Below are positions 2,389-56,003 of a stretch of DNA of 64,000 nt, one piece after another. Location: positions 67,704,001 through 67,768,000 of the forward strand of contig OX597830.1 of NCBI GenBank assembly GCA_951406725.2, written 5' to 3'. This DNA is from Octopus vulgaris. Taxonomy: Eukaryota. The notes under the pieces are model-generated. The model was not told the DNA's origin, did no database searches, and was given only the letters and a program-made list of their open reading frames with translations. Position 1 is the first letter of the stretch. Every line of letters begins with the position of its first letter. Made by a program: the position numbers and the translations under genes.

Positions 2389-7282
<4,894 letters not shown>

Positions 7283-8193: not shown

Positions 8194-11412
<3,219 letters not shown>

Positions 11413-13870: not shown

Positions 13871-13897
13871 GTTTATTTATTTTTTCTCTCACCGACA

Positions 13898-17285: not shown

Positions 17286-17381
17286 CTATGGATGGAGGAG
17301 AGGAAAGAAAAGCTGCGGGGCCTTATAATTATAAAGCTGCGGGGCCTTGAGAATTATTTTCTCTTTCATTGAAATGAATGA

Positions 17382-32941: not shown

Positions 32942-32942
<1 letters not shown>

Positions 32943-33401
32943 TAGCATTAAAGACCCGTCGTTGCCGGGTCATAGTGCTAGTGCATGTATATTTGTGTAT
33001 ATATATGTGTACATATTACATGTACATCTATATATATACATCTACACATAAAATACAAAATACAAGGTTATATCTTGATATCGCTAGTGATAACAATACT
33101 CAAAATATATAACAGACTGGAATTGTTAGCCCGTCAATTGTATCTTGTCCTCCCTCTTGTATAGAAGTGTGGCTACAATCCAGCCTACCTCTACTTCTGG
33201 GGATGGGGGCATTTTAAATTTTTTTCCGGACGTCCTACATCCCAGATATAAAGGTAAAAATAAAATATTTCCACTTTGCAAGTTTGAGTCAAGTACTCCC
33301 TTGCACGCTCCGTTGACTCGAATCTTGCTTCTATTGTGGTGAATTTACCGCCTCTGATTAGATACCTTTCATAGTAGCACCAAGACACTTTTCGAAGGTG
33401 C
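32942..33401 (-). mobile_element. Helitron 3' end (left part of the element hosting the Tx1 cluster)
   Basis: Minus strand GACCCG-gcaacga-CGGGTC hairpin followed 7 nt later by CTAG|T, the canonical Helitron 3' terminus. Confidence 0.65.
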
Positions 33402-33658
33402 TTTCCTCCATGTTGTTTTATTATTACCCACAAGGGGCGAACACAGATGGGACAATACAATATGATGATGGGGTCAGACAAACGAATGGGTTTTTACAAT
33501 AAATCGAATTTAAAAATTTTCATGAATTACAATAAATGGACAGAAATCGATGATAGGACAGACCGGAAGACATTACGGGTGGAGTGGGTGCGGGTTTAGC
33601 TCGGACCCCACGAGCCCCGCCTCCCCACTGATACTTTTGGTTGCGCTTGGTATTACAT

Positions 33659-36600
33659 TTATGTTGTATCTTTCACTCGCAACTTTCGTGCTACATCCTT
33701 CCATCGTTCTTCATACACTCTCCTAGTCAGGCATATTCTCTCCAGCCCTATCTTCCTTTTCAGGTGAAAGATGAAATAATTCATCAAACCAGGGCCGGAG
33801 ATGAACTTGCCTGACTGTAAACCTTTCATTCTCGTCTTCCATATCACCTCTTTCGCGATTGCTACTACAACGAGAAAACGAAACTTACCTTCATTCACGA
33901 GGAAATCCGGTGGGTCAATTTTTGTAATCGACTCAGTCGACAGCTGTACTCTTCGTGTACCTGACAACAGCTGTTCGGCATAAACCCACACCTCAGACAC
34001 GTCCGGACAATGAACAATAGCGTGCGGGACGGTTTCCCTATCCCGCCCGCATCTTGGACATATCGGACTGTCTTGGCCACCGTGCCTTGCGAGTTTATCC
34101 CGAACAGGTAGAGCTCCTCTGTAGCATTGCCATGCCAGAGACTTCTGGAAGTTGTCCAGTGTCCTCGGCTCGAACGTACGTCGGAACAGACTGGCCAGCT
34201 GATTATCGTCGAGACCTAGGGTTTCCCCCAAGGTATCTTCACATTCCGCCTCTACCAACCCTCTATAGAAGAATGTGGTGGAACCCCCACCGCAGGCGTT
34301 GCCCGAGCGACGGAATAGCAGGAGAGCCTTGCGACACTCCGTGTACCAAGTACCAAGTTTCGATCTACGATTCAGCCAGGTTTCCCATCCACCGAAACTA
34401 GTGAACTTGGGAAACATCAGTTTTGCTAGCGAAGACCACACCCGTTCACCATCCAGGTAGAGCCACAGATGTCTTAACCTCAGCGCATGTCTGCGCATCA
34501 TCAGCCAAGGCATCCCTAGCCCACCCTTTAACGGTTGTTGACAGCAAGTAGAGCGTTTCACAAGTGGTTTCCCGCCCTTCCACAAGAAGTAGAAGAGCTG
34601 TCTTTCCAACTTGATCAACCACGAATCAGGGCAAGGAACGACGGAAAGGCGGTAGGTGATAACCGATGCGATAAACACATTGGCCACCTCCGCCCTCCCT
34701 TTCAGGGATAGCCACCGCCAAGACCAGGTCTTGGCTACTGCAGCCACCTTGCTCGTTACCTCGCCCCAATTCTTCTCTATTTGGAGGTCTGGACCGAACC
34801 AGACCCCTAGCAGTTTAATCGGACCCTCCGTCCAACGTCCCACGACGCTGTCAGGAGGCATCGACTTGCCTCTCCAGGTGCCGAGTTGCAAGCCGACTGA
34901 CTTTTCGCGATTAACTTTTGCTCCTGTCACCGTCTCGTACACCTCTATGGCCTTGCCTACTTTACATAGGTGGTCCATTTCGGTTACGATGATGGTGATG
35001 TCATCCGCGTACGCTGACACTGATTTTCCATTACCTGGCTGTCTCGGGATGCCGCTCAGTTTTCGCAGTAATGGCTCAAGAGCCATCACGTACAAAAGCG
35101 GGGAGAGCGGACACCCTTGACGAACCGAGCGTTTGATTTTGAACGGCTTCGACAAGAAGCCGTTCACCCGAACTACCGAGTCGATGTTATCATAAATTTC
35201 GATAATCCACCTGAGGAATCCAAGGCTCAGCCCGAACTGTGCCAGGGCAGATACCAGGTAACGATGGTCGACCCTATCAAAAGCTTTAGATTGGTCTAAA
35301 TGGACCAGTGCCCCACCCTTGCCAGAATCACTATTAAACCCCTCTATAGTGTACCGCATTAGATGGAGATTATCCTGAATGGATCTGCCCGGAACGGCAC
35401 ATGTCTGTGCCCCTCCGATCAGACCATCCGCGACACGCGCCAATCTTTTCGATAACACTTTGGCCAAAATCTTCAACTCTGTGTTTAGCAGAGTGATGGG
35501 CCTGAAATTATCAATGCACTCCCCCTTGCTCGGGTCCTTTCTGACGAGAGTCACTACTCCCCGGCGCACAGATCTGGGTATAAGCCCGTTCTGCTGCCAG
35601 TTCGCGTAGACCTCCGCCAGTAGGTGCCCGAACAAGTCTGGCATACTCTTATATAACTCATAGGGTAGACCATCCAAACCCGGCGCCTTGCCCGCGCCGC
35701 AGTCCGCCATTGCCTCAACCACCTCCTCAGGCGTGATTGGCCCTTCACAGCCCTCCGCATCTCGCCCCGATAAGCGCGGCAGACCGTCGAGTAGGTCCGT
35801 AAAGGCCCTCCTCCTATCCAGTCCGCCGCACTCACCGAAAAGCTGAGCGAAGTGCTCCTGAAAGGCCTCACACATCTCCTCGGGTTCGTTTATCAACTCA
35901 CCTTGTTGGTTCGTCAAAGATCGAATCGTGGCATCGTTACCATGCTGAGCTTCCACCACTCGGGCCCATCTCACGGCGTTGATTCCTTCACATCCCATAT
36001 GACGGATTCTAGCCCTGACAATGCAGCCCATGTGTTTGGCCTCGAGGTGCTGGTTTAACACCAGTCTCTTGGCCGCCACCTGAGCCGCAGAGCCAGTTTT
36101 CATGGCTTCCTCTAATTCCTTAACTAGAGTAGTTTCCCTTCTAGCCTCTCTAGCCACTACTCCTATGCTATATCTAATAGACTCAAACTTGATGGCTCGT
36201 TTGAGGGCGTACCACCATTTGTTATTAATGATGGTACCAGATAGTGCCCTCTGAATTATATTCCTAATCCGGTCTTTGTACTCCTTAATCGCCAAAAGGG
36301 ACGTATTAAGTTTCCAGTAACCGGATCCTCTATTTTTAACCTTATCTATGTCAAGCTTACAAGTGACCATTTTATGATCACTGTAGCTGATCGGGTAAAA
36401 CTGTGGACACTTAGCTATTTTACTGTCTACTTTTCTAATTAGTATTCTATCTAGATATGACCTGGAAGATCCGTCGCTGTTTGACCATGTCCACAATGGA
36501 GCGTTCGGAAATTCCAGCCTATAAGGATCTGCTAGCTCAAAGCGGCTTAGCAGTTCCATGAAGCCACTGTTGCCTTTTCTATCTGGACACGAGCCAACAT

Positions 36601-37054
36601 AATCTACATCCGCTTTGCAAATTGTGTTAAAGTCTCCTAGCACCACTAATGAATGCGAAGTACCAAGAAAGTTTTCTAGTTCACGAAAATAATCACTTTG
36701 CCCTGTATGGTTGGGTGCGTAAATTGCAACCAGTCTGATAACTTTACCATTACTGAACGTCAAATCCATGACGACCAGCCTACCTTCTGGATCTGCAAAA
36801 ATTAACTTTTTCTCAGAAACCCGGTTTCTTTTTAATAGGACCAACACCCCACTCCCGCCTGTAGGACTGCCAGGAGAGAAAAAACTCTCGTAGCCGTCAA
36901 ACAGCGGGAGTAGACCTCTTGGCCCCTCTAACCGGGTTTCTGTAGCAACAATAACATCTAAATTACGCGACCTGATATCATGCAGGAAGCGACCTTGCTT
37001 CCAGCCTGCTCCCAGGCCGCGCACATTTAAACAACCAACATAAATGTAATCCAT
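33659..37054 (-). CDS. Tx1 ORF2, intact 1131 aa: APE endonuclease, reverse transcriptase, C-terminal zinc finger
   Basis: CLNVRG, TET, IYAPN, GDFN, SYLDRI, SDHK, YWKLN, APGLDG, FRPITLLN, DQSKAFDRV, VRQGCPLSP, AYADD, CPRC..ETVPHAIVHC. Confidence 0.96.
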   Translation of the reverse strand: MDYIYVGCLNVRGLGAGWKQGRFLHDIRSRNLDVIVATETRLEGPRGLLPLFDGYESFFSPGSPTGGSGVLVLLKRNRVSEKKLIFADPEGRLVVMDLTFSNGKVIRLVAIYAPNHTGQSDYFRELENFLGTSHSLVVLGDFNTICKADVDYVGSCPDRKGNSGFMELLSRFELADPYRLEFPNAPLWTWSNSDGSSRSYLDRILIRKVDSKIAKCPQFYPISYSDHKMVTCKLDIDKVKNRGSGYWKLNTSLLAIKEYKDRIRNIIQRALSGTIINNKWWYALKRAIKFESIRYSIGVVAREARRETTLVKELEEAMKTGSAAQVAAKRLVLNQHLEAKHMGCIVRARIRHMGCEGINAVRWARVVEAQHGNDATIRSLTNQQGELINEPEEMCEAFQEHFAQLFGECGGLDRRRAFTDLLDGLPRLSGRDAEGCEGPITPEEVVEAMADCGAGKAPGLDGLPYELYKSMPDLFGHLLAEVYANWQQNGLIPRSVRRGVVTLVRKDPSKGECIDNFRPITLLNTELKILAKVLSKRLARVADGLIGGAQTCAVPGRSIQDNLHLMRYTIEGFNSDSGKGGALVHLDQSKAFDRVDHRYLVSALAQFGLSLGFLRWIIEIYDNIDSVVRVNGFLSKPFKIKRSVRQGCPLSPLLYVMALEPLLRKLSGIPRQPGNGKSVSAYADDITIIVTEMDHLCKVGKAIEVYETVTGAKVNREKSVGLQLGTWRGKSMPPDSVVGRWTEGPIKLLGVWFGPDLQIEKNWGEVTSKVAAVAKTWSWRWLSLKGRAEVANVFIASVITYRLSVVPCPDSWLIKLERQLFYFLWKGGKPLVKRSTCCQQPLKGGLGMPWLMMRRHALRLRHLWLYLDGERVWSSLAKLMFPKFTSFGGWETWLNRRSKLGTWYTECRKALLLFRRSGNACGGGSTTFFYRGLVEAECEDTLGETLGLDDNQLASLFRRTFEPRTLDNFQKSLAWQCYRGALPVRDKLARHGGQDSPICPRCGRDRETVPHAIVHCPDVSEVWVYAEQLLSGTRRVQLSTESITKIDPPDFLVNEGKFRFLVVVAIAKEVIWKTRMKGLQSGKFISGPGLMNYFIFHLKRKIGLERICLTRRVYEERWKDVARKLRVKDTT

Positions 37055-37068
37055 TACTTACCTTTATA

Positions 37069-38440
37069 TCAGTGGTTCGGTTTTTCTTCTTCTTCCTTCT
37101 CTTTTTCTGGGCCTCGTGGGGGAGTCTGACGTAGGCCCTCGAATATATGTGGAGATGTTACATCCAACCTAAGTGGGCCTACGTCATGGAAGAATTCTGA
37201 CTTTATCCGCCCGTAATCCTTCCGGTCTATTTTGTAAATTACAAAGTCATTTTTTTTCTCTACTTTCTTCACTTTGGCCATGGCTGCCAACACGTTTCCG
37301 AGTCTGCTATTTGATGCTTTTACGGCCATATATGAGTTCATTGACTCTTTTTTCTTTTTTAAAATTACTCTGGGAGGGGTGGTTTCCGTTTTTCTTTTTT
37401 TTTTCCGATAATTTTTGCCCACCCCTCCTCATTTATCTTTTCCTCGCTCTTTTTTTTCTCCGCCGCTGGTTCTGCTGTTACCATCACCTCCACACCTTCA
37501 GTCTTCCCTTCTGGGCCGTCTGACGCTGCTTCTGGTGACACATTGTCTTCTTTTTCTTTTGGCTTAGGTGCTTCCTGCGGTTTGGGTTGGGGCTGGCATT
37601 CCGCCCTTACATGCCCCTTCTTACCGCAGCCGAAGCACCTCGGCTTTCTGCCCTCTACGAAGACTGTGACTCTTTCATCTTCGCTTATCCTTAGAGTCTC
37701 TGGGATCTCTTCCAGGGTTTGTACTTCTGCTTGTATGGCTATTATTATCTTTTGCCCTTTCCAGAATTCTTCTTCTTCTACGGTGGCCTGGAGGATGTTT
37801 ATTTTTTCCTCCAGGCCTACCATAACTGCTGCCACTAGGACTTCGGCATCCGCTTCTGGCGGGATGTTGTTCATTGTGATCTTGGAAGTTCTCTTGCCTT
37901 TATACAGGGGTAGGAGAACAATATCCTCCGCTTTTATGGGTTCCATGGATAGCTTCTTGCTACCTCCTCTGACGTGAATCTCACCTCCACTGTGCCGTAT
38001 TTCTTCCCTCGATTGATATACGTAATTTTATCCATTATTGGCTTTAAGCAGTTTTCAATCTTTTTCTCCTCTATTTTTTGGATTGCTCTGTTTGTTATAC
38101 TGAATGTCTTATAGATTATTCTCCTATTCGAAATATCCTCCTGTATTTGGGCGTTTGAAGCCACGGTTACTTCCGTGCCCTCTTTTGACACACAGTCCGC
38201 ATGTTTTCCCAGGTTGTCCACGTTAATTTTTTTAATTTTCTTCCCAGCCACTTCAGCGAATTTTTTTGCTGGAGTTGATGCTGGTACTGGTTTTACCATT
38301 TTCTTGGGCGACGCCGCCTCTTTTTTCTTCGGCGACAGCGCCTCTTTTTTTCTTGGCGACAACGCCTCTTTTTTACTTGGCGACAACGCCGGGTATTCAT
38401 CCTCGCTCGTCACGGGCGAATAAGTGATGGGGGACTCCAT
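37069..38440 (-). CDS. Tx1 ORF1 (SPKK repeats, RRM-like region, CCHC knuckle) with two 1-bp frameshifts that may be sequencing errors
   Basis: Pieces 37934-38449, 37365-37946 and 37069-37422; KYGTVEVRF, VEGRKPRCFGCGKKGHVRAEC; breaks lie in short A runs. Confidence 0.8.
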
Positions 38441-38818
38441 CTTGAACAAATGGCTTTAACAAGCCTTTGGTAATCTAAATTAATTGTAGTTTTCCCCCAC
38501 TGAGGGGGGAACACCAACGCGAAGTCTTCGCGCGAAGGTTGACTTCGTCAGTTAGACAACAATGGACAAAAAAAGGTAGACCAACAGTATATAATAACAG
38601 AGATAAGTAGTATGAGAGCAAAAATATATATCAACTTACTAATAACGCAAAAAATTGATTTCCTCCATGTTATTTCTTTATTACCCACCAGGGGCTACGA
38701 AGAATGGCGGACATAACAAAACATGGGGGACATAGAACAATATGATTAAATTTATGAATGAAATGAAAATGAAAAAATGATAATATGAAAGCGATGCTAA
38801 CGGCCCCCTCCGCCAGCA

Positions 38819-40183
38819 TCACTTACCTGTCCTTTTGTTTTCACTGTCACCTGAATGTTCATTCCCAATACGAAGACCATCCATATCCATTCTTACTCCG
38901 AAACTGTCCTCCATATATTCCACGAATTCATCGCTCATTCTTGTATCTTTCACCTCCCAATTCTCCCTTTCACACCTCAACACAAACTCATCTATATTCT
39001 TCTTTTCCAGCACTGCATATCTGGTCCCATCCATTTCATACCATTCATACTCCTCCATTACCCTTTCAACCTCTTTCTGTTCAGTCACAATATAAATGTT
39101 CGGCCTGGGTTCGTTTTCAAACTCTTGTCTGTCTGTATTATTATTTTTCTTTTGTTTTCTTGTTGGAGGGGAGCGGGTGGGTTCACTGTCTGCAGGGGAA
39201 GGGTGGGATTCAGAGGGTGCGGGTGGTGTTGGGGTGGGTTGGGGCTTCGCACAGTTTTTCTTTTTCTTTCTTTTTCTCTTTTTTCTTCCTTCTTCCCACT
39301 CTTGTTGCATCTCCTCTTCTTCTGTCGTTTCTTTTTCCCTTTGGTTCTCTTTGGTTTCTTCCTCTTTTGGGGCTTCCGCGACGATTTCCTTTTCTTTTTC
39401 CTTTGGTGGGGGAGGGCAGTAGGCTCTTATGTGACCCCTCAGGCCACACTTGTAGCACCTGGGCGCCCTACCCTCCACCCACACTCTCATAATAATATTT
39501 CCAGTTTTTATACTGTCCGTAAGCTTTTCTATAACTTCCGCCTCCGTCTGTATGTTCATTACTAGTGTGGCACCTCTCACGCCTTCATATTTCATAATGG
39601 CGTGGAGGATGTCCACTTTATCTTCATTTCCTTTGATAACCGCAGCCGTTATTAATTCGCCCTCTAGGTGTGGAGGTATTCCTTCCACCCTAATTCTGGT
39701 GGTCCTTCTATTCAAATACGAGGGGAACAAGTAAAACTTTTCTGTACTCACCACCTTGGCTGCTATATTCCTGGCTGCTTTCTCACTTTTAAATTGTACC
39801 GTTATGGTTCCATATTCTAATCCTTTTGTCATGTACACAATTTCTTCTCCTGTCTGTTTGAAAGCCTCTTCAATTGCTTCCATGTTAATCACTTCCATTT
39901 TTCTACCTCCATTCATAAATACTTTATATTTAATGGTTCTACGATGGAACCAGTCTCCGCGCCCTGCTAGAGGCAACAGCTCAACCTCTCCGTTCTCCTC
40001 CTCCTTCATGAACTCCTGGAAGTCCGTCAACTTAGCCAGGTCTATCTCTTTTTCTGTTGACTTCTTCGTTATACCTGCGTAGGTACTTTCCATTTTTTTC
40101 ACCGCCAACTCCTCCTCAGATGTCGACGAATTTTCAGAGAAATTTCTCCCTTCCATCTCATCCGTTTGGTAGAGGCGGCTCAT
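38819..40183 (-). CDS. ORF1/gag-like CCHC protein of the divergent unit 0 (~454 aa, intact)
   Basis: Open frame; YGTITVQF, RIRVEGIPP, VEGRAPRCYKCGLRGHIRAYC; start taken at the ATG of MSRLYQ. Confidence 0.85.
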   Translation of the reverse strand: MSRLYQTDEMEGRNFSENSSTSEEELAVKKMESTYAGITKKSTEKEIDLAKLTDFQEFMKEEENGEVELLPLAGRGDWFHRRTIKYKVFMNGGRKMEVINMEAIEEAFKQTGEEIVYMTKGLEYGTITVQFKSEKAARNIAAKVVSTEKFYLFPSYLNRRTTRIRVEGIPPHLEGELITAAVIKGNEDKVDILHAIMKYEGVRGATLVMNIQTEAEVIEKLTDSIKTGNIIMRVWVEGRAPRCYKCGLRGHIRAYCPPPPKEKEKEIVAEAPKEEETKENQREKETTEEEEMQQEWEEGRKKRKRKKKKNCAKPQPTPTPPAPSESHPSPADSEPTRSPPTRKQKKNNNTDRQEFENEPRPNIYIVTEQKEVERVMEEYEWYEMDGTRYAVLEKKNIDEFVLRCERENWEVKDTRMSDEFVEYMEDSFGVRMDMDGLRIGNEHSGDSENKRTGK

Positions 40184-40500
40184 AGTCGCCTCAGACCGAA
40201 AAACGGCCTCCCGAACAGAAAACGTGCGACGCACAGAACCAGTGCGACGCGAAACCGCACCAACCGACGTTCCAATTCCGCAACCACAATTCACTTTTTG
40301 TTCTTTTTTCTTTTTTAACCGAATTTTACAGAGCGCAAAAAAACGCGTATTTCTTTATTACCCACTAAGGGGCTACGAAGAATGGCGGACATAACAAAAC
40401 ATGGGGACATAGAACATTATAATTAAACTTTATGAACATGAATTGTTAAACGAAAAAAATGATAAAATGAAAGCGATACCAACGGCCCCGTCCGTCAGCA

Positions 40501-41916
40501 TCACTTACCTGTCCTTTGTTTTTCATAGTCACTTGAATGTTCTTTGCCAATACGAATAAATTCCATATCCATTCTTACTCCGAAATACTCATCCATATTT
40601 TCCACGAATTCATCGCTCATTCTTATATCTTTCACCTCCCAATTCTCCCTTTCACACCTCCCCATAAACTCACCTATGTTCTTCTTTTCAATCACAGCAT
40701 ACCTAGTCTCTCCAACATCATACCATTTATACTCTTCCATTAGACTTTTAACTTCCTCTGTTCAGTCATAGTACAAATGTACGGCCTGGGTTCGATTTCA
40801 ATCTCTTGTGTGTGTGTATTCTTTTTTCTTTTGTTTTCTTGTTGGGGGGGAGCGGGTGGGTTCAATGTCTGCATGGATAGGGTGGGACTCAGAGGGTGTG
40901 GGAGGTTTTGGGGTAGATTGGAGTTCCATATTATTTTCTTTTTTTCCACATATTCTTCTCTTCCTCTTACTTCCAGCTTCCTTCCATTTCTGTGTATTCT
41001 CTTCCTCTGTTTCCTTCTCCTCTGGTTTCTGCTTCTCTCTCTCTGGTTCGGGATCCATTTCTTTCCCTGGGGGAGGGCAGAAGGCTCTTATGTGACCCCT
41101 CAGGCCACACTTGTAACAACGTGGAGCCCTGCCCTCCACCCACACTCTCATGATCACTTCTCCCAGTCTGATGCTTTCCGTCAGGTCCACCAGTACCTCG
41201 GTCTCTGCCTGTACGTTCAGCTCCACTGTTACGCCTCTCCAGCCCTCGGACTTAACCGAGGCATGGAGAATATCCACTTCGTCCTCGTGGCCGCTGATCA
41301 CAGCCGCCACAATCCATTCTGCCTCCACGTTTGGTGGCACTCCCTCCACCCTTATTCGTGTAATCCTCCTGTTTAAATACGTAGGTAACAGTGTTACCTT
41401 TTCCGACTTCACCGCCTTCGCTGCCATCTTCCTCGCTGCAGATTCACTTTTAAAGTGCACAACTACGGTCCCGTACTTGGATCCTCGAGTCAGAAAATTT
41501 ATTTCCTCCTCAGTTCTTCGCAGGGCTTCCTCTATCCATTCCATGGTTACAACTTCTACCCTCTTCCTTTCGTTTGCGAACACCCTGTAAACAATGGTCC
41601 TCTTATCATACCATTCTTTTCTCCTGGGTGTCGGTGATAGTTCCACCTCACCGCTTTCCTTTTTCATGTATTTCTGGTAACTTGGCAACTTGGCCATGTC
41701 GACCCCTTTCTCTTCCGCCTTCTTGGTTACACCGGCATAGGTATAACCCAGCTTCTCTTCCAATTCCCTTGCTGCCATTTCTAGCTCCTTCTCAGACGTA
41801 GGCAAGTCTGATAAAGACTCGAAAACTCCAGCCTTTTCTTCCATCAGCTTCATTGCAATTGCCTGTTCCAGTTCCTCATCTGTCGTGGACAAGTCTGTTA
41901 GAGACTCATAATCCAT
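40501..41916 (-). pseudogene. Unit 1 ORF1-like gene with small indels
   Basis: Fragments 40798-41916, 40740-40949 and 40501-40740 reconstruct the unit protein. Confidence 0.8.
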
Positions 41917-42231
41917 TTCCCTCTGTCTGACAGACCGAAAACGGCCGCCAAAACAGAAAAAGTGTAACGCGCTGAACGAGCGAAACGCGAAACCGCGTCA
42001 ACGCCGTTCAGAATTTCCACAACAACAACAACGCTTTTTGTTCTTTTTTACCGAATTTTCAGGAGCCGAAAAAACGCGTATTTCTTTATTACCCACTAAG
42101 GGGCTACGAAGAATGGCGGACATAACAAAACATGGGGACATAGAACATTATAATTAAACTTTATGAACATGAATTGTTAAACGAAAAAAATGATAAAATG
42201 AAAGCGATACCAACGGCCCCGTCCGTCAGCA

Positions 42232-43649
42232 TCACTTACCTGTCCTTTGTTTTTCATAGTCACTTGAATGTTCTTTGTCAATACGAATAAATTCCATATC
42301 CATTCTTACTCCGAAATACTCATCCATATTTTCCACGAATTCATCGCTCATTCTTATATCTTTCACCTCCCAATTCTCCCTTTCACACCTCCCCATAAAC
42401 TCACCTATGTTCTTCTTTTCAATCACAGCATACCTAGTCTCTCCAACATCATACCATTTATACTCTTCCATTAGACTTTTAACTTCTTTCTGTTCAGTCA
42501 TAGTACAAATGTACGGCCTGGGTTCGATTTCAATCTCTTGTGTGTGTGTATTCTTTTTTTTCTTTTGTTTTCTTGTTGGGGGGAGCGGGTGGGTTCAATG
42601 TCTGCATGGATAGGGTGGGACTCAGAGGGTGTGGGAGGTTTTGGGGTAGATTGGAGTTCCATATTATTTTCTTTTTTTCCACATATTCTTCTCTTCCTCT
42701 TACTTCCAGCTTCCTTCCATTTCTGTGTATTCTCTTCCTCTGTTTCCTTCTCCTCTGGTTTCTGCTTCTCTCTCTCTGGTTCGGGATCCATTTCTTTCCC
42801 TGGGGGAGGGCAGAAGGCTCTTATGTGACCCCTCAGGCCACACTTGTAACAACGTGGAGCCCTGCCCTCCACCCACACTCTCATGATCACTTCTCCCAGT
42901 CTGATGCTTTCCGTCAGGTCCACCAGTACCTCGGTCTCTGCCTGTACGTTCAGCTCCACTGTTACGCCTCTCCAGCCCTCGGACTTAACCGAGGCATGGA
43001 GAATATCCACTTCGTCCTCGTGGCCGCTGATCACAGCCGCCACAATCCATTCTGCCTCCACGTTTGGTGGCACTCCCTCCACCCTTATTCGTGTAATCCT
43101 CCTGTTTAAATACGTAGGTAACAGTGTTACCTTTTCCGACTTCACCGCCTTCGCTGCCATCTTCCTCGCTGCAGATTCACTTTTAAAGTGCACAACTACG
43201 GTCCCGTACTTGGATCCTCGAGTCAGAAAATTTATTTCCTCCTCAGTTCTTCGCAGGGCTTCCTCTATCCATTCCATGGTTACAACTTCTACCCTCTTCC
43301 TTTCGTTTGCGAACACCCTGTAAACAATGGTCCTCTTATCATACCATTCTTTTCTCCTGGGTGTCGGTGATAGTTCCACCTCACCGCTTTCCTTTTTCAT
43401 GTATTTCTGGTAACTTGGCAACTTGGCCATGTCGACCCCTTTCTCTTCCGCCTTCTTGGTTACACCGGCATAGGTATAACCCAGCTTCTCTTCCAATTTC
43501 CTTGCTGCCATTTCTAGCTCCTTCTCAGACGTAGGCAAGTCTGATAAAGACTCGAAAACTCCAGCCTTTTCCTCCATCAGCTTCACTGCAATTGCCTGTT
43601 CCAGTTCCTCATCCGTCGTGGACAAGTCTGTTAGAGACTCATAGTCCAT
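42232..43649 (-). pseudogene. Unit 2 ORF1-like gene, single indel in a G run
   Basis: Fragments 42498-43649 and 42232-42501. Confidence 0.8.
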
Positions 43650-43965
43650 TTCCTTCTGTCTGACAGACCGAAAACGGCCGCCAAAACAGAAAAAGTGTAA
43701 CGCGCTGAACGAGCGAAACGCGAAACCGCGTCAACGCCGTTCAGAATTTCCACAACAACAACAACGCTTTTTGTTCTTTTTTACCGAATTTTCAGGAGCG
43801 CAAAAAAACGCGTATTTCTTTATTACCCACTAAGGGGCTACGAAGAATGGCGGACATAACAAAACATGGGGACATAGAACATTATAATTAAACTATATGA
43901 ACATGAAGTGTTAAACGAAAAAAATGATAAAATGAAAGCGATACCAACGGCCCCGTCCGTCAGCA

Positions 43966-45380
43966 TCACTTACCTGTCCTTTGTTTTTCATAGTCACTTG
44001 AATGTTCTTTGCCAATACGAATAAATTCCATATCCATTCTTACTCCGAAATACTCATTCATATTTTCCACGAATTCATCGCTCATTCTTATATCTTTCAC
44101 CTCCCAATTCTCCCTTTCACACCTCCCCATAAACTCACCTATGTTCTTTTTTTCAATCACAGCATACCTAGTCTCTCCAACATCATACCGTTTATACTCT
44201 TCCATTAGACTTTTAACTTCCCTCTGTTCAGTCATAGTACAAATGTACGGCCTGGGTTCGATTTCAATCTCTTGTGTGTGTGTATTCTTTTTTTCTTTTG
44301 TTTTCTTGTTGGGGGGGAGCGGGTGGGTTCAATGTCTGCATGGATAGGGTGGGACTCAGAGGGTGTGGGAGGTTTTGGGGTAGATTGGAGTTCCATATTA
44401 TTTTCTTTTTTTCCACATATTCTTCTCTTCCTCTTACTTCCAGCTTCCTTCCATTTCTGTGTATTCTCTTCCTCTGTTTCCTTCTCCTCTGGTTTCTGCT
44501 TCTCTCTCTCTGGTTCGGGATCCATTTCTTTCCCTGGGGGAGGGCAGAAGGCTCTTATGTGACCCCTCAGGCCACACTTGTAACAACGTGGAGCCCTGCC
44601 CTCCACCCACACTCTCATGATCACTTCTCCCAGTCTGATGCTTTCCGTCAGGTCCACCAGTACCTCGGTCTCTGCCTGTACGTTCAGCTCCACTGTTACG
44701 CCTCTCCAGCCCTCGGACTTAACCGAGGCATGGAGAATATCCACTTCGTCCTCGTGGCCGCTGATCACAGCCGCCACAATCCATTCTGCCTCCACGTTTG
44801 GTGGCACTCCCTCCACCCTTATTCGTGTAATCCTCCTGTTTAAATACGTAGGTAACAGTGTTACCTTTTCCGACTTCACCGCCTTCGCTGCCATCTTCCT
44901 CGCTGCAGATTCACTTTTAAAGTGCACAACTACGGTCCCGTACTTGGATCCTCGAGTCAGAAAATTTATTTCCTCCTCAGTTCTTCGCAGGGCTTCCTCT
45001 ATCCATTCCATGGATACAACTTCTACCCTCTTCCTTTCGTTTGCGCACACCCTGTAAACAATGGTCCTCTTATCATACCATTCTTTTCTCCTGGGTGTCG
45101 GTGATAGTTCCACCTCACCGCTTTCCTTTTTCATGTATTTCTGGTAACTTGGCAACTTGGCCATGTCGACCCCTTTCTCTTCCGCCTTCTTGGTTACACC
45201 GGCATAGGTATAACCCAGCTTCTTCCAATTTCCTTGCTGCCATTTCTAGCTCCTTCTCAGACATAGGCAAGTCTGATAAAGACTCAAAAACTCCAGCCTT
45301 TTCCTCCATCAGCTTCACTGCAATTGCCTGTTCCAGTTCCTCATCCGTCGTGGACAAGTCTGTTAAGACTCATAGTCCAT
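43966..45380 (-). pseudogene. Unit 3 ORF1-like gene, several small indels
   Basis: Fragments 45115-45357, 44232-45164 and 43966-44235. Confidence 0.8.
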
Positions 45381-45695
45381 TTCCTTCTGTCTGACAGACC
45401 GAAAACGGCCGCCAAAACAGAAAAAGTGTAACGCGCTGAACGAGCGAAACGCGAAACCGCGTCAACGCCGTTCAGAATTTCCACAACAACAACAACCTTT
45501 TTGTTCTTTTTTACCGAATTTTCAGGAGCCGAAAAAAACGCGTATTTCTTTATTACCCACTAAGGGGCTACGAAGAGTGGCGGACATAACAAAACATGGG
45601 GACATAGAACATTATAATTAAACTTTATGAACATGAATTGTTAAACGAAAAAAATGATAAAATGAAAGCGATACCAACGGCCCCGTCCGTCAGCA

Positions 45696-47060
45696 TCACT
45701 TACCTGTCCTTTGTTTTTCATAGTCACTTGAATGTTCTTTGTCAATACGAATAAATTCCATATCCATTCTTACTCCGAAATACTCATCCATATTTTCCAC
45801 GAATTCATCGCTCATTCTTATATCTTTCACCTCCCAATTCTCCCTTTCACACCTCCCCATAAACTCACCTATGTTCTTCTTTTCAATCACAGCATACCTA
45901 GTCTCTCCAACATCATACCATTTATACTCTTCCATTAGACTTTTAACTTCTTTCTGTTCAGTCATAGTACAAATGTACGGCCTGGGTTCGATTTCAATCT
46001 CTTGTGTGTGTGTATTCTTTTTTTTCTTTTGTTTTCTTGTTGGGGGGGAGCGGGTGGGTTCAATGTCTGCATGGATAGGGTGGGACTCAGAGGGTGTGGG
46101 AGGTTTTGGGGTAGATTGGAGTTCCATATTATTTTCTTTTTTTCCACATATTCTTCTCTTCCTCTTACTTCCAGCTTCCTTCCATTTCTGTGTATTCTCT
46201 TCCTCTGTTTCCTTCTCCTCTGGTTTCTGCTTCTCTCTCTCTGGTTCGGGATCCATTTCTTTCCCTGGGGGAGGGCAGAAGGCTCTTATGTGACCCCTCA
46301 GGCCACACTTGTAACAACGTGGAGCCCTGCCCTCCACCCACACTCTCATGATCACTTCTCCCAGTCTGATGCTTTCCGTCAGGTCCACCAGTACCTCGGT
46401 CTCTGCCTGTACGTTCAGCTCCACTGTTACGCCTCTCCAGCCCTCGGACTTAACCGAGGCATGGAGAATATCCACTTCGTCCTCGTGGCCGCTGATCACA
46501 GCCGCCACAATCCATTCTGCCTCCACGTTTGGTGGCACTCCCTCCACCCTTATTCGTGTAATCCTCCTGTTTAAATACGTAGGTAACAGTGTTACCTTTT
46601 CCGACTTCACCGCCTTCGCTGCCATCTTCCTCGCTGCAGATTCACTTTTAAAGTGCACAACTACGGTCCCGTACTTGGATCCTCGAGTCAGAAAATTTAT
46701 TTCCTCCTCAGTTCTTCGCAGGGCTTCCTCTATCCATTCCATGGTTACAACTTCTACCCTCTTCCTTTCGTTTGCGAACACCCTGTAAACAATGGTCCTC
46801 TTATCATACCATTCTTTTCTCCTGGGTGTCGGTGATAGTTCCACCTCACCGCTTTCCTTTTTCATGTATTTCTGGTAACTTGGCAACTTGGCCATGTCGA
46901 CCCCCCTCTCCTCCGCCCTCCTGGTTACACCGGCATAGGTATAACCCAGCTTCTGATCCATTTTCCTCACTGCCATTTCTAGCTCCTCCTCAGACGTAGA
47001 CAAGTCTGTTAAAGACTCAAAAACTGCAGCCGTATCTCCCATCAGGTAGGGGTTGTCCAT
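45696..47060 (-). CDS. Unit 4 ORF1/gag-like protein, intact 454 aa, variant N-terminus
   Basis: Uninterrupted ORF; CYKCGLRGHIRAFC knuckle; one acidic N-terminal repeat instead of two. Confidence 0.9.
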   Translation of the reverse strand: MDNPYLMGDTAAVFESLTDLSTSEEELEMAVRKMDQKLGYTYAGVTRRAEERGVDMAKLPSYQKYMKKESGEVELSPTPRRKEWYDKRTIVYRVFANERKRVEVVTMEWIEEALRRTEEEINFLTRGSKYGTVVVHFKSESAARKMAAKAVKSEKVTLLPTYLNRRITRIRVEGVPPNVEAEWIVAAVISGHEDEVDILHASVKSEGWRGVTVELNVQAETEVLVDLTESIRLGEVIMRVWVEGRAPRCYKCGLRGHIRAFCPPPGKEMDPEPEREKQKPEEKETEEENTQKWKEAGSKRKRRICGKKENNMELQSTPKPPTPSESHPIHADIEPTRSPPTRKQKKKKNTHTQEIEIEPRPYICTMTEQKEVKSLMEEYKWYDVGETRYAVIEKKNIGEFMGRCERENWEVKDIRMSDEFVENMDEYFGVRMDMEFIRIDKEHSSDYEKQRTGK

Positions 47061-47393
47061 TTCCTTCTGTCTGACAGACCGAAAACGGCCGCCAAAACAG
47101 AAAAAGTGTAACGCGCTGAACGAGCGAAACGCGAAACCGCGTCAACGCCGTTCAGAATTTCCACAACAACAACAACGCTTTTTGTTCTTTTTTACCGAAT
47201 TTTCAGGAGCCGAAAAAAAACACGGAGCCGAAAAAACGCGTATTTCTTTATTACCCACTAAGGGGCTACGAAGAATGGCGGACATAACAAAACATGGGGA
47301 CATAGAACATTATAATTAAACTTTATGAACATGAATTGTTAAACGAAAAAAATGATAAAATGAAAGCGATACCAACGGCCCCGTCCGTCAGCA

Positions 47394-48810
47394 TCACTTA
47401 CCTGTCCTTTGTTTTTCATAGTCACTTGAATGTTCTTTGCCAATACGAATAAATTCCATATCCATTCTTACTCCGAAATACTCATTCATATTTTCCACGA
47501 ATTCATCGCTCATTCTTATATCTTTCACCTCCCAATTCTCCCTTTCACACCTCCCCATAAACTCACCTATGTTCTTCTTTTCAATCACAGCATACCTAGT
47601 CTCTCCAACATCATACCATTTATACTCTTCCATTAGACTTTTAACTTCCCTCTGTTCAGTCATAGTACAAATGTACGGCCTGGGTTCGATTTCAATCTCT
47701 TGTGTGTGTGTATTCTTTTTTTCTTTTGTTTTCTTGTTGGGGGGAGCGGGTGGGTTCAATGTCTGCATGGATAGGGTGGGACTCAGAGGGTGTGGGAGGT
47801 TTTGGGGTAGATTGGAGTTCCATATTATTTTCTTTTTTTCCACATATTCTTCTCTTCCTCTTACTTCCAGCTTCCTTCCATTTCTGTGTATTCTCTTCCT
47901 CTGTTTCCTTCTCCTCTGGTTTCTGCTTCTCTCTCTCTGGTTCGGGATCCATTTCTTTCCCTGGGGGAGGGCAGAAGGCTCTTATGTGACCCCTCAGGCC
48001 ACACTTGTAACAACGTGGAGCCCTGCCCTCCACCCACACTCTCATGATCACTTCTCCCAGTCTGATGCTTTCCGTCAGGTCCACCAGTACCTCGGTCTCT
48101 GCCTGTACGTTCAGCTCCACTGTTACGCCTCTCCAGCCCTCGGACTTAACCGAGGCATGGAGAATATCCACTTCGTCCTCGTGGCCGCTGATCACAGCCG
48201 CCACAATCCATTCTGCCTCCACGTTTGGTGGCACTCCCTCCACCCTTATTCGTGTAATCCTCCTGTTTAAATACGTAGGTAACAGTGTTACCTTTTCCGA
48301 CTTCACCGCCTTCGCTGCCATCTTCCTCGCTGCAGATTCACTTTTAAAGTGCACAACTACGGTCCCGTACTTGGATCCTCGAGTCAGAAAATTTATTTCC
48401 TCCTCAGTTCTTCGCAGGGCTTCCTCTATCCATTCCATGGTTACAACTTCTACCCTCTTCCTTTCGTTTGCGAACACCCTGTAAACAATGGTCCTCTTAT
48501 CATACCATTCTTTTCTCCTGGGTGTCGGTGATAGTTCCACCTCACCGCTTTCCTTTTTCATGTATTTCTGGTAACTTGGCAACTTGGCCATGTCGACCCC
48601 TTTCTCTTCCGCCTTCTTGGTTACACCGGCATAGGTATAACCCAGCTTCTCTTCCAATTCCCTTGCTGCCATTTCTAGCTCCTTCTCAGACGTAGGCAAG
48701 TCTGATAAAGACTCGAAAACTCCAGCCTTTTCCTCCATCAGCTTCACTGCAATTGCCTGTTCCAGTTCCTCATCCGTCGTGGACAAGTCTGTTAGAGACT
48801 CATAGTCCAT
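47394..48810 (-). pseudogene. Unit 5 ORF1-like gene, homopolymer indels
   Basis: Fragments 47692-48810 and 47394-47843. Confidence 0.8.
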
Positions 48811-49154
48811 TTCCTTCTGTCTGACAGACCGAAAACGGCCGCCAAAACAGAAAAAGTGTAACGCGCTGAACGAGCGAAACGCGAAACCGCGTCAACGCCG
48901 TTCAGAATTTCCACAACAACAACAACGCTTTTTGTTCTTTTTTACCGAATTTTCAGGAGCCGAAAAAAAACGACTGAGCAGAAAGCAGAAAGCAGTAAGG
49001 CTATTTCTTTATTACCCACTAAGGGGCTACGAAGAGTGCCTGACATAACAAAACATGGGGACATAGAACATTATAATTAAACTTTATGAACATGAAGTGT
49101 TAAACGAAAAAAATGATAAAATGAAAGCGATACCAACGGCCCCGTCCGTCAGCA

Positions 49155-50572
49155 TCACTTACCTGTCCTTTGTTTTTCATAGTCACTTGAATGTTCTTTG
49201 CCAATACGAATAAATTCCATATCCATTCTTACTCCGAAATACTCATTCATATTTTCCACGAATTCATCGCTCATTCTTATATCTTTCACCTCCCAATTCT
49301 CCCTTTCACACCTCCCCATAAACTCACCTATGTTCTTTTTTTCAATCACAGCATACCTAGTCTCTCCAACATCATACCGTTTATACTCTTCCATTAGACT
49401 TTTAACTTCCCTCTGTTCAGTCATAGTACAAATGTACGGCCTGGGTTCGATTTCAATCTCTTGTGTGTGTGTATTCTTTTTTTTCTTTTGTTTTCTTGTT
49501 GGGGGGGAGCGGGTGGGTTCAATGTCTGCATGGATAGGGTGGGACTCAGAGGGTGTGGGAGGTTTTGGGGTAGATTGGAGTTCCATATTATTTTCTTTTT
49601 TTCCACATATTCTTCTCTTCCTCTTACTTCCAGCTTCCTTCCATTTCTGTGTATTCTCTTCCTCTGTTTCCTTCTCCTCTGGTTTCTGCTTCTCTCTCTC
49701 TGGTTCGGGATCCATTTCTTTCCCTGGGGGAGGGCAGAAGGCTCTTATGTGACCCCTCAGGCCACACTTGTAACAACGTGGAGCCCTGCCCTCCACCCAC
49801 ACTCTCATGATCACTTCTCCCAGTCTGATGCTTTCCGTCAGGTCCACCAGTACCTCGGTCTCTGCCTGTACGTTCAGCTCCACTGTTACGCCTCTCCAGC
49901 CCTCGGACTTAACCGAGGCATGGAGAATATCCACTTCGTCCTCGTGGCCGCTGATCACAGCCGCCACAATCCATTCTGCCTCCACGTTTGGTGGCACTCC
50001 CTCCACCCTTATTCGTGTAATCCTCCTGTTTAAATACGTAGGTAACAGTGTTACCTTTTCCGACTTCACCGCCTTCGCTGCCATCTTCCTCGCTGCAGAT
50101 TCACTTTTAAAGTGCACAACTACGGTCCCGTACTTGGATCCTCGAGTCAGAAAATTTATTTCCTCCTCAGTTCTTCGCAGGGCTTCCTCTATCCATTCCA
50201 TGGTTACAACTTCTACCCTCTTCCTTTCGTTTGCGAACACCCTGTAAACAATGGTCCTCTTATCATACCATTCTTTTCTCCTGGGTGTCGGTGATAGTTC
50301 CACCTCACCGCTTTCCTTTTTCATGTATTTCTGGTAACTTGGCAACTTGGCCATGTCGACCCCTTTCTCTTCCGCCTTCTTGGTTACACCGGCATAGGTA
50401 TAACCCAGCTTCTTTCCAATTTCCTTGCTGCCATTTCTAGCTCCTTCTCAGACGTAGACAAGTCTGATAAAGACTCGAAAACTCCAGCCTTTTCCTCCAT
50501 CAGCTTCACTGCAATTGCCTGTTCCAGTTCCTCATCCGTCGTGGACAAGTCTGTTAGAGACTCATAGTCCAT
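49155..50572 (-). pseudogene. Unit 6 ORF1-like gene, one N-terminal indel, 399 aa open downstream
   Basis: Fragments 50384-50572 and 49155-50354. Confidence 0.8.
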
Positions 50573-50960
50573 TTCCTTCTGTCTGACAGACCGAAAACGG
50601 CCGCCAAAACAGAAAAAGTGTAACGCGCTGAACGAGCGAAACGCGAAACCGCGTCAACGCCGTTCAGAATTTCCACAACAACAACAACGCTTTTTGTTCT
50701 TTTTTACCGAATTTTCAGGAGCCGAAAAAACCGCGACCTTTTTTCCTCTACATTGTATACTTTATAGACAATAGTCTTTTCTTTTCTTTTATTTTTTATT
50801 ATCCATCTCTTTTTTTTATTACCCACTAAGGGGCTACGAAGAATGGCGGACATAACAAAACATGGGGACATAGAACATTATAATTAAACTTTATGAAAAT
50901 GAATTGTTAAACGAAAAAATGATAAAATGAAAGCGATACCAACGGCCCCGTCCGTCAGCA

Positions 50961-52370
50961 TCACTTACCTGTCCTTTGTTTTTCATAGTCACTTGAATGT
51001 TCTTTGCCAATACGAATAAATTCCATATCCATTCTTACTCCGAAATACTCATCCATATTTTCCACGAATTCATCGCTCATTCTTATATCTTTCACCTCCC
51101 AATTCTCCCTTTCACACCTCCCCATAAACTCACCTATGTTCTTCTTTTCAATCACAGCATACCTAGTCTCTCCAACATCATACCATTTATACTCTTCCAT
51201 TAGACTTTTAACTTCTTTCTGTTCAGTCATAGTACAAATGTACGGCCTGGGTTCGATTTCAATCTCTTGTGTGTGTGTATTCTTTTTTTTCTTTTGTTTT
51301 CTTGTTGGGGGGGAGCGGGTGGGTTCAATGTCTGCATGGATAGGGTGGGACTCAGAGGGTGTGGGAGGTTTTGGGGTAGATTGGAGTTCCATATTATTTT
51401 CTTTTTTTCCACATATTCTTCTCTTCCTCTTACTTCCAGCTTCCTTCCATTTCTGTGTATTCTCTTCCTCTGTTTCCTTCTCCTCTGGTTTCTGCTTCTC
51501 TCTCTCTGGTTCGGGATCCATTTCTTTCCCTGGGGGAGGGCAGAAGGCTCTTATGTGACCCCTCAGGCCACACTTGTAACAACGTGGAGCCCTGCCCTCC
51601 ACCCACACTCTCATGATCACTTCTCCCAGTCTGATGCTTTCCGTCAGGTCCACCAGTACCTCGGTCTCTGCCTGTACGTTCAGCTCCACTGTTACGCCTC
51701 TCCAGCCCTCGGACTTAACCGAGGCATGGAGAATATCCACTTCGTCCTCGTGGCCGCTGATCACAGCCGCCACAATCCATTCTGCCTCCACGTTTGGTGG
51801 CACTCCCTCCACCCTTATTCGTGTAATCCTCCTGTTTAAATACGTAGGTAACAGTGTTACCTTTTCCGACTTCACCGCCTTCGCTGCCATCTTCCTCGCT
51901 GCAGATTCACTTTTAAAGTGCACAACTACGGTCCCGTACTTGGATCCTCGAGTCAGAAAATTTATTTCCTCCTCAGTTCTTCGCAGGGCTTCCTCTATCC
52001 ATTCCATGGTTACAACTTCTACCCTCTTCCTTTCGTTTGCGAACACCCTGTAAACAATGGTCCTCTTATCATACCATTCTTTTCTCCTGGGTGTCGGTGA
52101 TAGTTCCACCTCACCGCTTTCCTTTTTCATGTATTTCTGGTAACTTGGCAACTTGGCCATGTCGACCCCTTTCTCTTCCGCCTTCTTGGTTACACCGGCA
52201 TAGGTATAACCCAGCTTCTTTCCAATTTTCCTTCACTGCCATTTCTAGCTCCTCCTCAGACGTAGCAAGTCTGATAAAGACTCAAAAACTCCAGCCTTTT
52301 CTCCATCAGCTTCATGCAATTGCCTGTTCCAGTTCCTCATCAGGAAAGTCTGTTAGGACTCATAGTCCAT
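50961..52370 (-). pseudogene. Unit 7 ORF1-like gene, garbled N-terminus, 399 aa open downstream
   Basis: ORF 50961-52160 plus an indel-rich 5' segment. Confidence 0.75.
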
Positions 52371-52681
52371 TTCCTTCTGTCTGACAGACCGAAAACGGCC
52401 GCCAAAACAGAAAAAGTGTAACGCGCTGAACGAGCGAAACGCGAAACCGCGTCAACGCCGTTCAGAATTTCCACAACAACAACAACGCTTTTTGTTCTTT
52501 TTACCGAATTTCAGGAGCCGAAAAAAGGGCACGTATTTTTTATTACCCACTAAGGGGCTACGAAGGCGGACATAACAAAACATGGGGACATAGAACATTA
52601 TAATTAAACTTTATGAACATGTATTGTTAAACGAAAAAAATGATAAAATGAAAGCGATACCAACGGCCCCGTCCGTCAGCA

Positions 52682-54089
52682 TCACTTACCTGTCCTTTGT
52701 TTTTCATAGTCACTTGAATGTTCTTTGCCAATACGAATAAATTCCATATCCATTCTTACTCCGAAATACTCATTCATATTTTCCACGAATTCATCGCTCA
52801 TTCTTATATCTTTCACCTCCCAATTCTCCCTTTCACACCTCCCCATAAACTCACCTATGTTCTTCTTTTCAATCACAGCATACCTAGTCTCTCCAACATC
52901 ATACCGTTTATACTCTTCCATTAGACTTTTAACTTCCCTCTGTTCAGTCATAGTACAAATGTACGGCCTGGGTTCGATTTCAATCTCTTGTGTGTGTGTA
53001 TTCTTTTTTTTCTTTTGTTTTCTTGTTGGGGGGAGCGGGTGGGTTCAATGTCTGCATGGATAGGGTGGGACTCAGAGGGTGTGGGAGGTTTTGGGGTAGA
53101 TTGGAGTTCCATATTATTTTCTTTTTTTCCACATATTCTTCTCTTCCTCTTACTTCCAGCTTCCTTCCATTTCTGTGTATTCTCTTCCTCTGTTTCCTTC
53201 TCCTCTGGTTTCTGCTTCTCTCTCTCTGGTTCGGGATCCATTTCTTTCCCTGGGGGAGGGCAGAAGGCTCTTATGTGACCCCTCAGGCCACACTTGTAAC
53301 AACGTGGAGCCCTGCCCTCCACCCACACTCTCATGATCACTTCTCCCAGTCTGATGCTTTCCGTCAGGTCCACCAGTACCTCGGTCTCTGCCTGTACGTT
53401 CAGCTCCACTGTTACGCCTCTCCAGCCCTCGGACTTAACCGAGGCATGGAGAATATCCACTTCGTCCTCGTGGCCGCTGATCACAGCCGCCACAATCCAT
53501 TCTGCCTCCACGTTTGGTGGCACTCCCTCCACCCTTATTCGTGTAATCCTCCTGTTTAAATACGTAGGTAACAGTGTTACCTTTTCCGACTTCACCGCCT
53601 TCGCTGCCATCTTCCTCGCTACAGATTCACTTTTAAAGTGCACAACTACGGTCCCGTACTTGGATCCTCGAGTCAGAAAATTTATTTCCTCCTCAGTTCT
53701 TCGCAGGGCTTCCTCTATCCATTCCATGGTTACAACTTCTACCCTCTTCCTTTCGTTTGCGAACACCCTGTAAACAATGGTCCTCTTATCATACCATTCT
53801 TTTCTCCTGGGTGTCGGTGATAGTTCCACCTCACCGCTTTCCTTTTTCATGTATTTCTGGTAACTTGGCAACTTGGCCATGTCGACCCCTTTCTCTTCCG
53901 CCTTCTTGGTTACACCGGCATAGGTATAACCCAGCTTCTGATCCATTTTCCTCACTGCTATTTCTAGCTCCTCCTCAGACGTAGACAAGTCTGATAAAGA
54001 CTCAAAACTCCAGCCTTTTCCTCCATCAGCTTCACTGCAATTGCCCGTTCCAGTTCCTCATCAGTCGTGGAAAGGGACTCATAGTCCAT
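52682..54089 (-). pseudogene. Unit 8 ORF1-like gene with indels and a hybrid N-terminus
   Basis: Fragments 52948-53988 and 52682-52951. Confidence 0.75.
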
Positions 54090-54404
54090 TTCCTTCTGTC
54101 TGACAGACCGAAAACGGCCGCCAAAACAGAAAAAGTGCAACGCGCTGAACGAGCGAAACGCGAAACCGCGTCAACGCCGTTCAGAATTTCCACAACAACA
54201 ACAACGCTTTTTGTTCTTTTTTACCGAATTTTCAGGAGCCGAAAAAACGCGTATTTCTTTATTACCCACTAAGGGGCTACGAAGAATGGCGGACATAACA
54301 AAACATGGGGACATAGAACATTATAATTAAACTATATGAACATGAAGTGTTAAACGAAAAAAATGATAAAATGAAAGCGATACCAACGGCCCCGTCCGTC
54401 AGCA

Positions 54405-55822: not shown

Positions 55823-56003
55823 TTCCTTCTGTCTGACAGACCGAAAACGGCCGCCAAAACAGAAAAAGTGTAACGCGCTGAACGAGCGAAACGCGAAACC
55901 GCGTCAACGCCGTTCAGAATTTCCACAACAACAACAACCTTTTTTGTTCTTTTTTACCGAATTTTCAGGAGCCGAAAAAAAAACACGGAGCCGAAAAAAC
56001 GCG

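Follow-up and report, generated by a model that had tools for sequence, protein, structure and literature searches.

A conserved 3′ tail with a predicted hairpin in Tx1-type LINEs, their ORF1-only relatives and a SINE of Octopus vulgaris, and its likely part in reverse transcription

Stringent pairs of a long interspersed element (LINE) and a short interspersed element (SINE) with a common tail are described for eel UnaL2, silkworm SART1, maize LINE1-1_ZM with ZmSINE2/3 and Chlamydomonas L1-1_CR with SINEX-3_CR (Ohshima 2012, PMC3472496; 2013, PMC3747384), and the passages concerned give only three SINEs with L1-clade tails, found in plants and a green alga. Crocodilian Tx1-Mar LINEs target a non-autonomous DNA transposon, and their SINEU dependents share that target, stack in tandem and carry target-derived 5′ extensions, the helper having been inferred there from target choice (Kojima 2015, PMC4494074). 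Non-autonomous LINEs in which open reading frame 1 (ORF1) is present include HeT-A (Jockey), HAL1 (L1) and Ag-Sponge (CR1) (Kojima 2018, PMC5786205, PMC5753468), and in R2 the junctions are formed by pairing of 3′ read-through bases with the nicked target, by pairing of the cDNA end with upstream sequence and by jumps of the reverse transcriptase (RT) from one template to another (PMC11371274, PMC6795142). Here a window of 64,000 nucleotides from Octopus vulgaris is analysed (assembly GCA_951406725.2, contig OX597830.1, positions 67,704,001 to 67,768,000 of the forward strand), in which a Tx1-type LINE, termed TX, and a chain of ten ORF1-only units end in the same 3′ tail with a GCCC-loop-GGGT motif. 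This motif is best read as a 3′ end conserved across a Tx1-type LINE clan, at least six ORF1-only families and a SINE; it is predicted to form a hairpin, it is likely, with some room for doubt, the RNA signal that the ORF2 protein of the clan binds to start reverse transcription, and the neighbouring TX is likely the helper at this site.

The octopus elements resemble the stringent pairs, as those reports present them, in that some 50 terminal nucleotides are held in common and include a hairpin, predicted in the octopus, whose flanks are conserved and whose stem varies by compensatory changes; they differ from the cases of Ohshima in being animal and Tx1-type, in lacking poly(A) and in having one tail for three kinds of element, LINEs, ORF1-only units and a SINE. 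As in the Tx1-Mar/SINEU system, a Tx1 LINE and its dependents occupy one site of a non-autonomous DNA transposon and stack in tandem. However, the SINEU dependents are non-coding, their tandem copies sandwich a target duplication and, in the account given, no LINE with the SINEU-1 3′ end was found (PMC4494074), whereas the octopus dependents encode ORF1, share the hairpin tail of the LINE and join mostly without duplication, and their host is a Helitron. Like HeT-A, HAL1 and Ag-Sponge, the units encode the ORF1 protein only and would need the ORF2 protein of a LINE; unlike them, they would depend on a Tx1-type clan (the passage on those elements names Jockey, L1 and CR1 origins only), insert at a sequence-specific site that is internal, do not carry poly(A) and appear to be old lineages, not copies of a helper shortened by deletion. 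R2 offers by analogy a model for the joints seen here and, as described, differs from TX in having one ORF, a restriction-like endonuclease and a 28S rDNA target. A 2026 octopus repeat annotation counts 13 recently active L1-Tx1 families, the relevant passages giving no tail or chain detail (PMC13282606), and no published account of such a tail-sharing Tx1 system was found in the literature searched, with Repbase, subscription journals and Bao and Jurka (2010) being places that may hold such families.

TX is a whole autonomous element (33415-38658, minus strand) with at least 40 genome copies at 98-100%. Its ORF2 (33659-37054, minus strand) is open over 1131 amino acids (aa), comprises an APE endonuclease, an RT with the YADD motif and a zf-RVT domain (Pfam PF03372, PF00078 and PF13966, with the catalytic motifs present), and has human L1 ORF2p as its closest solved structure (E 7e-65). 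The best named relative of the RT among the matches listed is from Argonauta hians (64%); the sole family-named match among 120 listed is 'Transposon TX1 uncharacterized 149 kDa protein' (38%), the ORF2 tree itself holding no reference Tx1 or L1 elements. ORF1 (37070-38440, minus strand, the end being approximate) is frameshifted in the window copy, and a 445-aa open stretch of it is present in another copy (L125 group).

The sequence GGGTAATAA occurs 11 times in the window, always on the minus strand: at the end of TX (33421-33429), in unit 0 (38678) and in units 1-9 (40355, 42086, 43820, 45550, 47248, 49009, 50816, 52540 and 54259). All eleven elements end in GCCCCT(1-2 nt)GTGGGTAATAA followed by 6-7 bases, with no poly(A). 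The shared tail of TX (33415-33460, minus strand) consists of TGTCC..TCT..GT, GCCC-loop-GGGT and AATAATAAAAC, that of unit 0 lies at 38672-38717 (minus strand), and each of units 1-9 closes with its own. The ends quoted for TX and unit 0 in the earlier note on this DNA match the window exactly; of what was quoted for units 1-9, GCCCCTTAGTGGGTAATAA is present in 9/9, and the longer string is exact in 5/9 and departs by 1-4 nearby letters in the other four. The mini stem and TAATAA are kept, as had been claimed, but the shared part is longer than was supposed, at about 45 nt including TGTCC..TCT..GT upstream; beyond it, the untranslated regions (UTRs) of TX and the units align weakly, through T-rich sequence. 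Given that the tail pattern has 25,011 matches genome-wide against 1 for a reversed control, the motif is not a product of chance. Nor does it derive from pre-existing target DNA, the outcome by which the earlier note would have been overturned: the motif is missing from 20/20 empty sites among 30 sampled targets and therefore belongs to the elements.

The survey of autonomous families covered 30 zf-RVT loci and 20 further stretches. The same hairpin is terminal in TX, in TX′ (93-95% ORF2 identity), in TXD and TXE (~80%), in TXC (72-75%) and in the L205 type, which differ in their 3′ flanks and form one ORF2 clade (support 100/98). The motif marks a clan of possible helpers, with at least five autonomous families, and not a single helper. 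To let the motif by itself identify the helper is too strong a claim, since its GCCC/GGGT hairpin closes at least five autonomous families whose 3′ flanks differ, and the tails of families U0-U3 are closer to TXC than to TX. Units and TX have 35-42 of the 45 terminal positions in common, U4 and U5 matching TX at 41-42. That the motif is an ORF2 recognition site fares better: it is terminal in many families, it comes without poly(A) and its pairing is kept across differing sequences. The tail is very probably a functional signal.

The first 30 of the 25,011 pattern matches all belong to one abundant SINE (L001-L030), which is about 230 nt long, has a tRNA-like head and ends in the clan tail. 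In most loci it agrees with the TX end at 83-92% over its final 36-49 nt, and its tail agrees about equally with those of TX, TXC and L205 (38, 38 and 40 of 45). Among copies with the head, 10/16 have a target duplication of at least 10 nt, against 0.6 by shuffling, two of these being in microsatellites and two probably representing one duplicated locus. The head has box-like A/B motifs, as seen by eye, and the middle part may be Meta-domain-like. Copies of the SINE are often also arranged head to tail in 184-nt repeats, which begin within the head, and 11/30 loci run into a next unit. No match to it was found in the published supplementary SINE data compared, and the passages of PMC4824008, PMC4758252 and PMC5804259 name no Tx1 partner for an octopus SINE. 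A distant Tx1 family (L251:2198-2244, plus strand; 62% to TX in the C-terminal part of ORF2) matches the 28 nt upstream of the SINE hairpin but differs in the hairpin itself, so that the tail of the SINE looks mosaic or derived from a family not sampled.

The motif is predicted to be the top of a hairpin of about 35 nt just before the 3′ end. In the predicted folds the conserved flanks UCU.UGU and AUA.AGAA pair and lengthen the stem, which would explain why both are conserved. Distant families have at the same place AAGATT/AATCTT, AAAATC/GATTTT, and ACCT/AGGT or ACC/GGT; in 9/11 tails without GCCC a stem ends at most 3 nt from the AATAA anchor (shuffle p <0.05 in six), and RNAalifold predicts 4 pairs on 8 of these tails, each with at least one two-sided change. 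Among 88 SINE tails, both of the two common variants in the stem region (U to C facing G; A to G facing U) leave the pairing intact. The pair counts exclude a MAFFT alignment of all 21 tails, which was out of register, and a search of Rfam gave no match to the tail. The earlier note had proposed an alignment with a covariation test: compensatory changes are found between families, and none inside the GCCC clade. It had also stated that the other Tx1 family of the window, here TXB, lacks the motif. This cannot be judged from the window copy (12205-17327, plus strand), which is 3′-truncated and stops at about 17327, before the 3′ UTR; of 20 loci examined, 19 run on into a tail with another hairpin, intact copies having an AT-rich hairpin end (...TCTATGTA ATGATT TTAT AATCGT AATAAAGAAAT) and a target of their own. 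TXB was rejected as the helper, 22/22 exact genome matches to its tail belonging to TXB copies.

The sequence that follows TX is a fixed site with 471 exact genome matches. Of 30 sampled targets 20 were empty, 7 held TX, 3 held ORF1-only units and none held another LINE; the empty sites read ...GAAGATTTGAAC up to the insertion point and ACATGGAGGAAAGCACC beyond it, or nearly so, and one is without the left arm. The site sits mid-way in a 1.05-kb repeat whose ends, taken from 13 empty copies, are a 5′ TC and a 3′ hairpin then CTAG, between A and T, with no terminal inverted repeat in self-comparison, all of which are hallmarks of Helitrons. In the window the two arms of this non-autonomous Helitron bracket the entire chain: the right arm (32942-33414, minus strand) starts with the target site ACATGGAGGAAAGCACC and has its 3′ hairpin and CTAG end near 32942-32980, and the left arm (56007-56520, minus strand) meets unit 9 at a joint where about 13 nt of target are lost. 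TX is flanked by a 13-nt target duplication, with the 3′ copy at 33402-33414 and the 5′ copy, between unit 0 and TX, at 38659-38671 (both minus strand); the duplication occurs in the window and at L289 and L297. Of 30 TX copies, 24 end on the right arm, 3 on a duplicated 12-13 nt piece of the target and 3 elsewhere, and for the 45 tails of the U0 class the counts are 22 on the arm, 16 on the duplicated piece and 7 elsewhere, with no tail ending on the 5′ end of another unit. Right arms at 32 filled loci are at most 97.7% alike (496 pairs), so the insertions are independent. TX and the units thus end on the same nucleotides of one Helitron site at many independent loci. Modified versions of the 'duplication' are also found repeatedly before TX and U4 (L285, L293, L141, L290 and L298; one such version, ACATGGCTCCAAGCT, is present at separate loci), which suggests that these forms were copied from RNA rather than made at the site.

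Given that the endonuclease is described as the main determinant of target choice (PMC4494074) and that TX is found at the Helitron site, TX is likely the helper of the target-adjacent units; for the internal units the case is weaker. No autonomous family other than TX and its close variants was found at the Helitron site among the 30 sampled targets, 18 fetched junctions and the flanks of TX and unit tails. It may be inferred from these sequences that the ORF2 protein of TX nicks the Helitron site and takes any RNA with the clan hairpin. The helper named in the earlier note is probably the right one, by virtue of its landing site rather than of the motif.

Several observations weigh against this reading. 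As regards the hairpin, a stem with negative energy is missing from 2/11 of the tails without GCCC, the consensus energy given by RNAalifold lies close to zero, single-sequence folds are weak (z -0.8 to -2.6 for six tails), the minimum-energy folds of the window TX and unit 0 tails use other pairings and the stem, being invariant within the GCCC clade, offers no covariation of its own there; furthermore, the families compared are related, so that counts are non-independent, and the stems were chosen by an optimiser. As regards the helper, the tails of U0-U3 agree with TXC at 40-41 of the last 45 positions and with TX at 35-37, and in the ORF1 tree the unit proteins branch apart from the 11 autonomous rows, with no nesting in the TX branch. 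Finally, every tail holds AATAAA, which could act in 3′-end formation.

The first alternative accepts the tail as an ORF2 signal and makes TXC or another clan member, not the adjacent TX, the main helper of U0-U3. The closer match of their tails to TXC speaks for this, and at L284 a full-length TXC stands at the 5′ end of a Helitron chain, joined directly to the 5′ end of a unit and with a unit-type leader; moreover, 0/30 tails of U2 and U3 end on the TX/Helitron target. Nevertheless this scenario is unlikely, though worth keeping in view, for three reasons: first, TXC was found on the Helitron site in 0/5 copies and in none of the printed flanks of a 17-member TXC cluster; second, U0 and one U1 lineage end precisely on that site; third, the exact TXC tail has 10 genome matches only. 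A hidden TXC-like helper was sought in 18 junctions of AGAAAT-type tail plus target, out of 134 matches, and all 18 were units of U0 or U1 type, with no TXC.

Unlikely too, and with rather little in reserve, is the possibility that the motif is a 3′-end-formation signal (AATAAA with a small stem) that fixes the RNA end, recognition by the ORF2 protein being loose and the target being chosen by read-through pairing alone. In keeping with such a signal, a T-rich stretch follows AATAAA in chains, and the base after the tail goes with position, 9/14 target-adjacent U1 copies having a target-adjacent copy as nearest neighbour, against 5/69 of the internal ones (p = 9e-6). Insertions, however, end 4-6 nt past AATAAA without poly(A), the sole long A runs being four expansions within AAAAATC joints, and pairing that is kept across differing sequences is unexpected for a poly(A) signal. 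A tRNA-headed SINE needs no poly(A) signal, which counts against this explanation as well. Very improbable, and largely refuted, is a tail shared by descent or tail capture without present function, in chains made by local duplication or Helitron carriage: a few arrays do hold runs of identical units (L136, L157) and at the young age of the elements even neutral sequence would look alike, but the last 45 nt are kept although unit ORF1s are 28-72% identical and UTRs differ, the median distance of U1 units is 0.67% to copies elsewhere and 1.46% to units of their own array, of 96 adjacent pairs none is found again at another locus within 0.3% (2 at 0.5%, against 1.2 by shuffling), which leaves block copying of a master array unsupported, and the Helitron arms are independent, by which arrays as Helitron cargo were rejected.

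With the tail read as a recognition signal of the clan, the ORF1-only units appear as its dependents. Unit 0 (family U0; 38672-40347, minus strand) has a 454-aa ORF at 38819-40183, and units 1-9 (family U1; 40348-56006, minus strand) follow head to tail with no target duplications between them. The ten units are of about 1.7 kb with one ORF each; units 1-9 have 97.4-99.7% mutual identity, and unit 0 is 73% like them. There are at least six unit families, with ORF1 proteins that are 30-38% identical to TX ORF1 (E 1e-30 to 1e-47) in addition to the divergence among themselves given above. Families U0-U3 have units of 1.65-1.95 kb with ORFs of 442-472 aa that include a CCHC knuckle, and no ORF2. 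Unit ORF1 is under purifying selection, with a dN/dS of 0.11 between U0 and U2 over 205 codons. The ORF1 of TXC is likewise just ~35% identical to that of the units, no autonomous parent that could yield the units by internal deletion was found among the 11 autonomous ORF1 rows of the tree, and a search for homologs of unit ORF1 gave no match at E 0.001. Full-length ORF1 is present in 26/83 U1 units, and frameshifts, which may in part be assembly errors in A runs, are frequent in TX and unit ORF1s alike; complementation of defective TX by unit ORF1 is therefore unsupported.

The organisation of chains was surveyed at 47 fetched loci, chosen by unit-end matches, together with the window. Between the left and the right arm of the Helitron there are usually one to fourteen units and then, optionally, TX. 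Arrays of HeT-A also run head-to-tail. Joints between units are mostly without duplication, and some hold pieces of the Helitron left arm, such as the 70-nt piece between units 7 and 6 (50739-50808, minus strand), or of other targets; where a unit is 5′-truncated, the tail of the next unit before it is intact. The joint piece GCCTTACTGCTTTCTGC (window 49002-49040, L087-L090 and L280) matches what follows a TXD copy in a different repeat, so fragments of other targets are present at chain joints. TX is not invariably last: at L342 a variant of it lies upstream of U0, at L359 another precedes the 5′ end of a unit, and at L284 TXC lies upstream of U2. A rule that the outermost unit is always full length is true at 31 loci with an intact left joint and fails at L354, L285, L291 and L292. 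At L284 (G000:C1:108553000-108562999), with L128, one Helitron holds the chain TXC, U2, U1, U4, TX, the TXC having a unit-type 5′ leader, and in the L125 group (G000:C1:74680105-74682812) a chain unit has an inverted middle part that resembles twin priming. At L173 a long duplication surrounds a three-unit chain and differs at several positions, so that it proves no single event.

Immediately upstream of the 5′ joint, 12/31 filled and 0/19 empty arms have a G variant (p = 0.0015), a distribution which suggests that the 5′ joint is templated by RNA. Together with the nearest-neighbour pattern of target-adjacent copies, these joints fit priming and sealing by flanking bases, by analogy with R2. 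The few read-through bases after the tail would likely pair with the primer, so that RNAs from target-adjacent copies would go to the target and RNAs from the chain interior to a unit 5′ end, and a short Helitron piece at the RNA 5′ end would likely seal the upstream joint. Repeated insertion at the 5′ joint and template jumping in one event both fit the chains, along which there is no age gradient (77 U1 units, rho -0.03).

On a wider view it is tentatively proposed, as something that may well prove otherwise, that an animal clan of the L1 group has exchanged poly(A) recognition for a small hairpin tail that is open to all members and has been exploited by old ORF1-only lineages and an abundant SINE; landing would be inherited via the read-through flanking bases, chain positions would breed true, and the helper would build ordered, self-extending chains in a Helitron. 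The choice of RNA by the L1 group is known mainly from mammalian L1, which reads poly(A), and the hairpin-type partners so far reported are from plants and an alga (PMC3472496, in the passages concerned). In the present locus the system is a young animal one: ORF2 is open, the signal is delimited to 45 nt, sister families supply natural variants of the stem and the DNA target is defined, which makes stringent recognition in Tx1 directly testable. With it, a Tx1-type example joins the lineages that have ORF1-only dependents, and a LINE group is suggested as the driver of an abundant SINE; an RT that is site-specific and takes any RNA provided with a 45-nt tail would, if true, be of interest for RNA-templated gene insertion.

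Other features lie apart from the chain. A 24-nt duplication is found at the truncation point of the window TXB copy (17309-17357), followed by an AG/GAAA microsatellite. This copy lies inside its own target repeat (11750-12204), which has inverted copies around 11750-11830 and 11990-12105 and whose sequence also follows most intact TXB copies. A further Tx1 family, with an ORF of 1140 aa, forms tandem full-length copies every 5.37 kb (L262 and L263; G000:C2:73046000-73063000), with a duplicated piece of target between the copies, in another target repeat. In the window, two RT-bearing ORFs of 932 and 626 aa (3939-6737 and 8893-10773, minus strand) lie between long AT microsatellites and belong to another LINE type, possibly one that is targeted to microsatellites.

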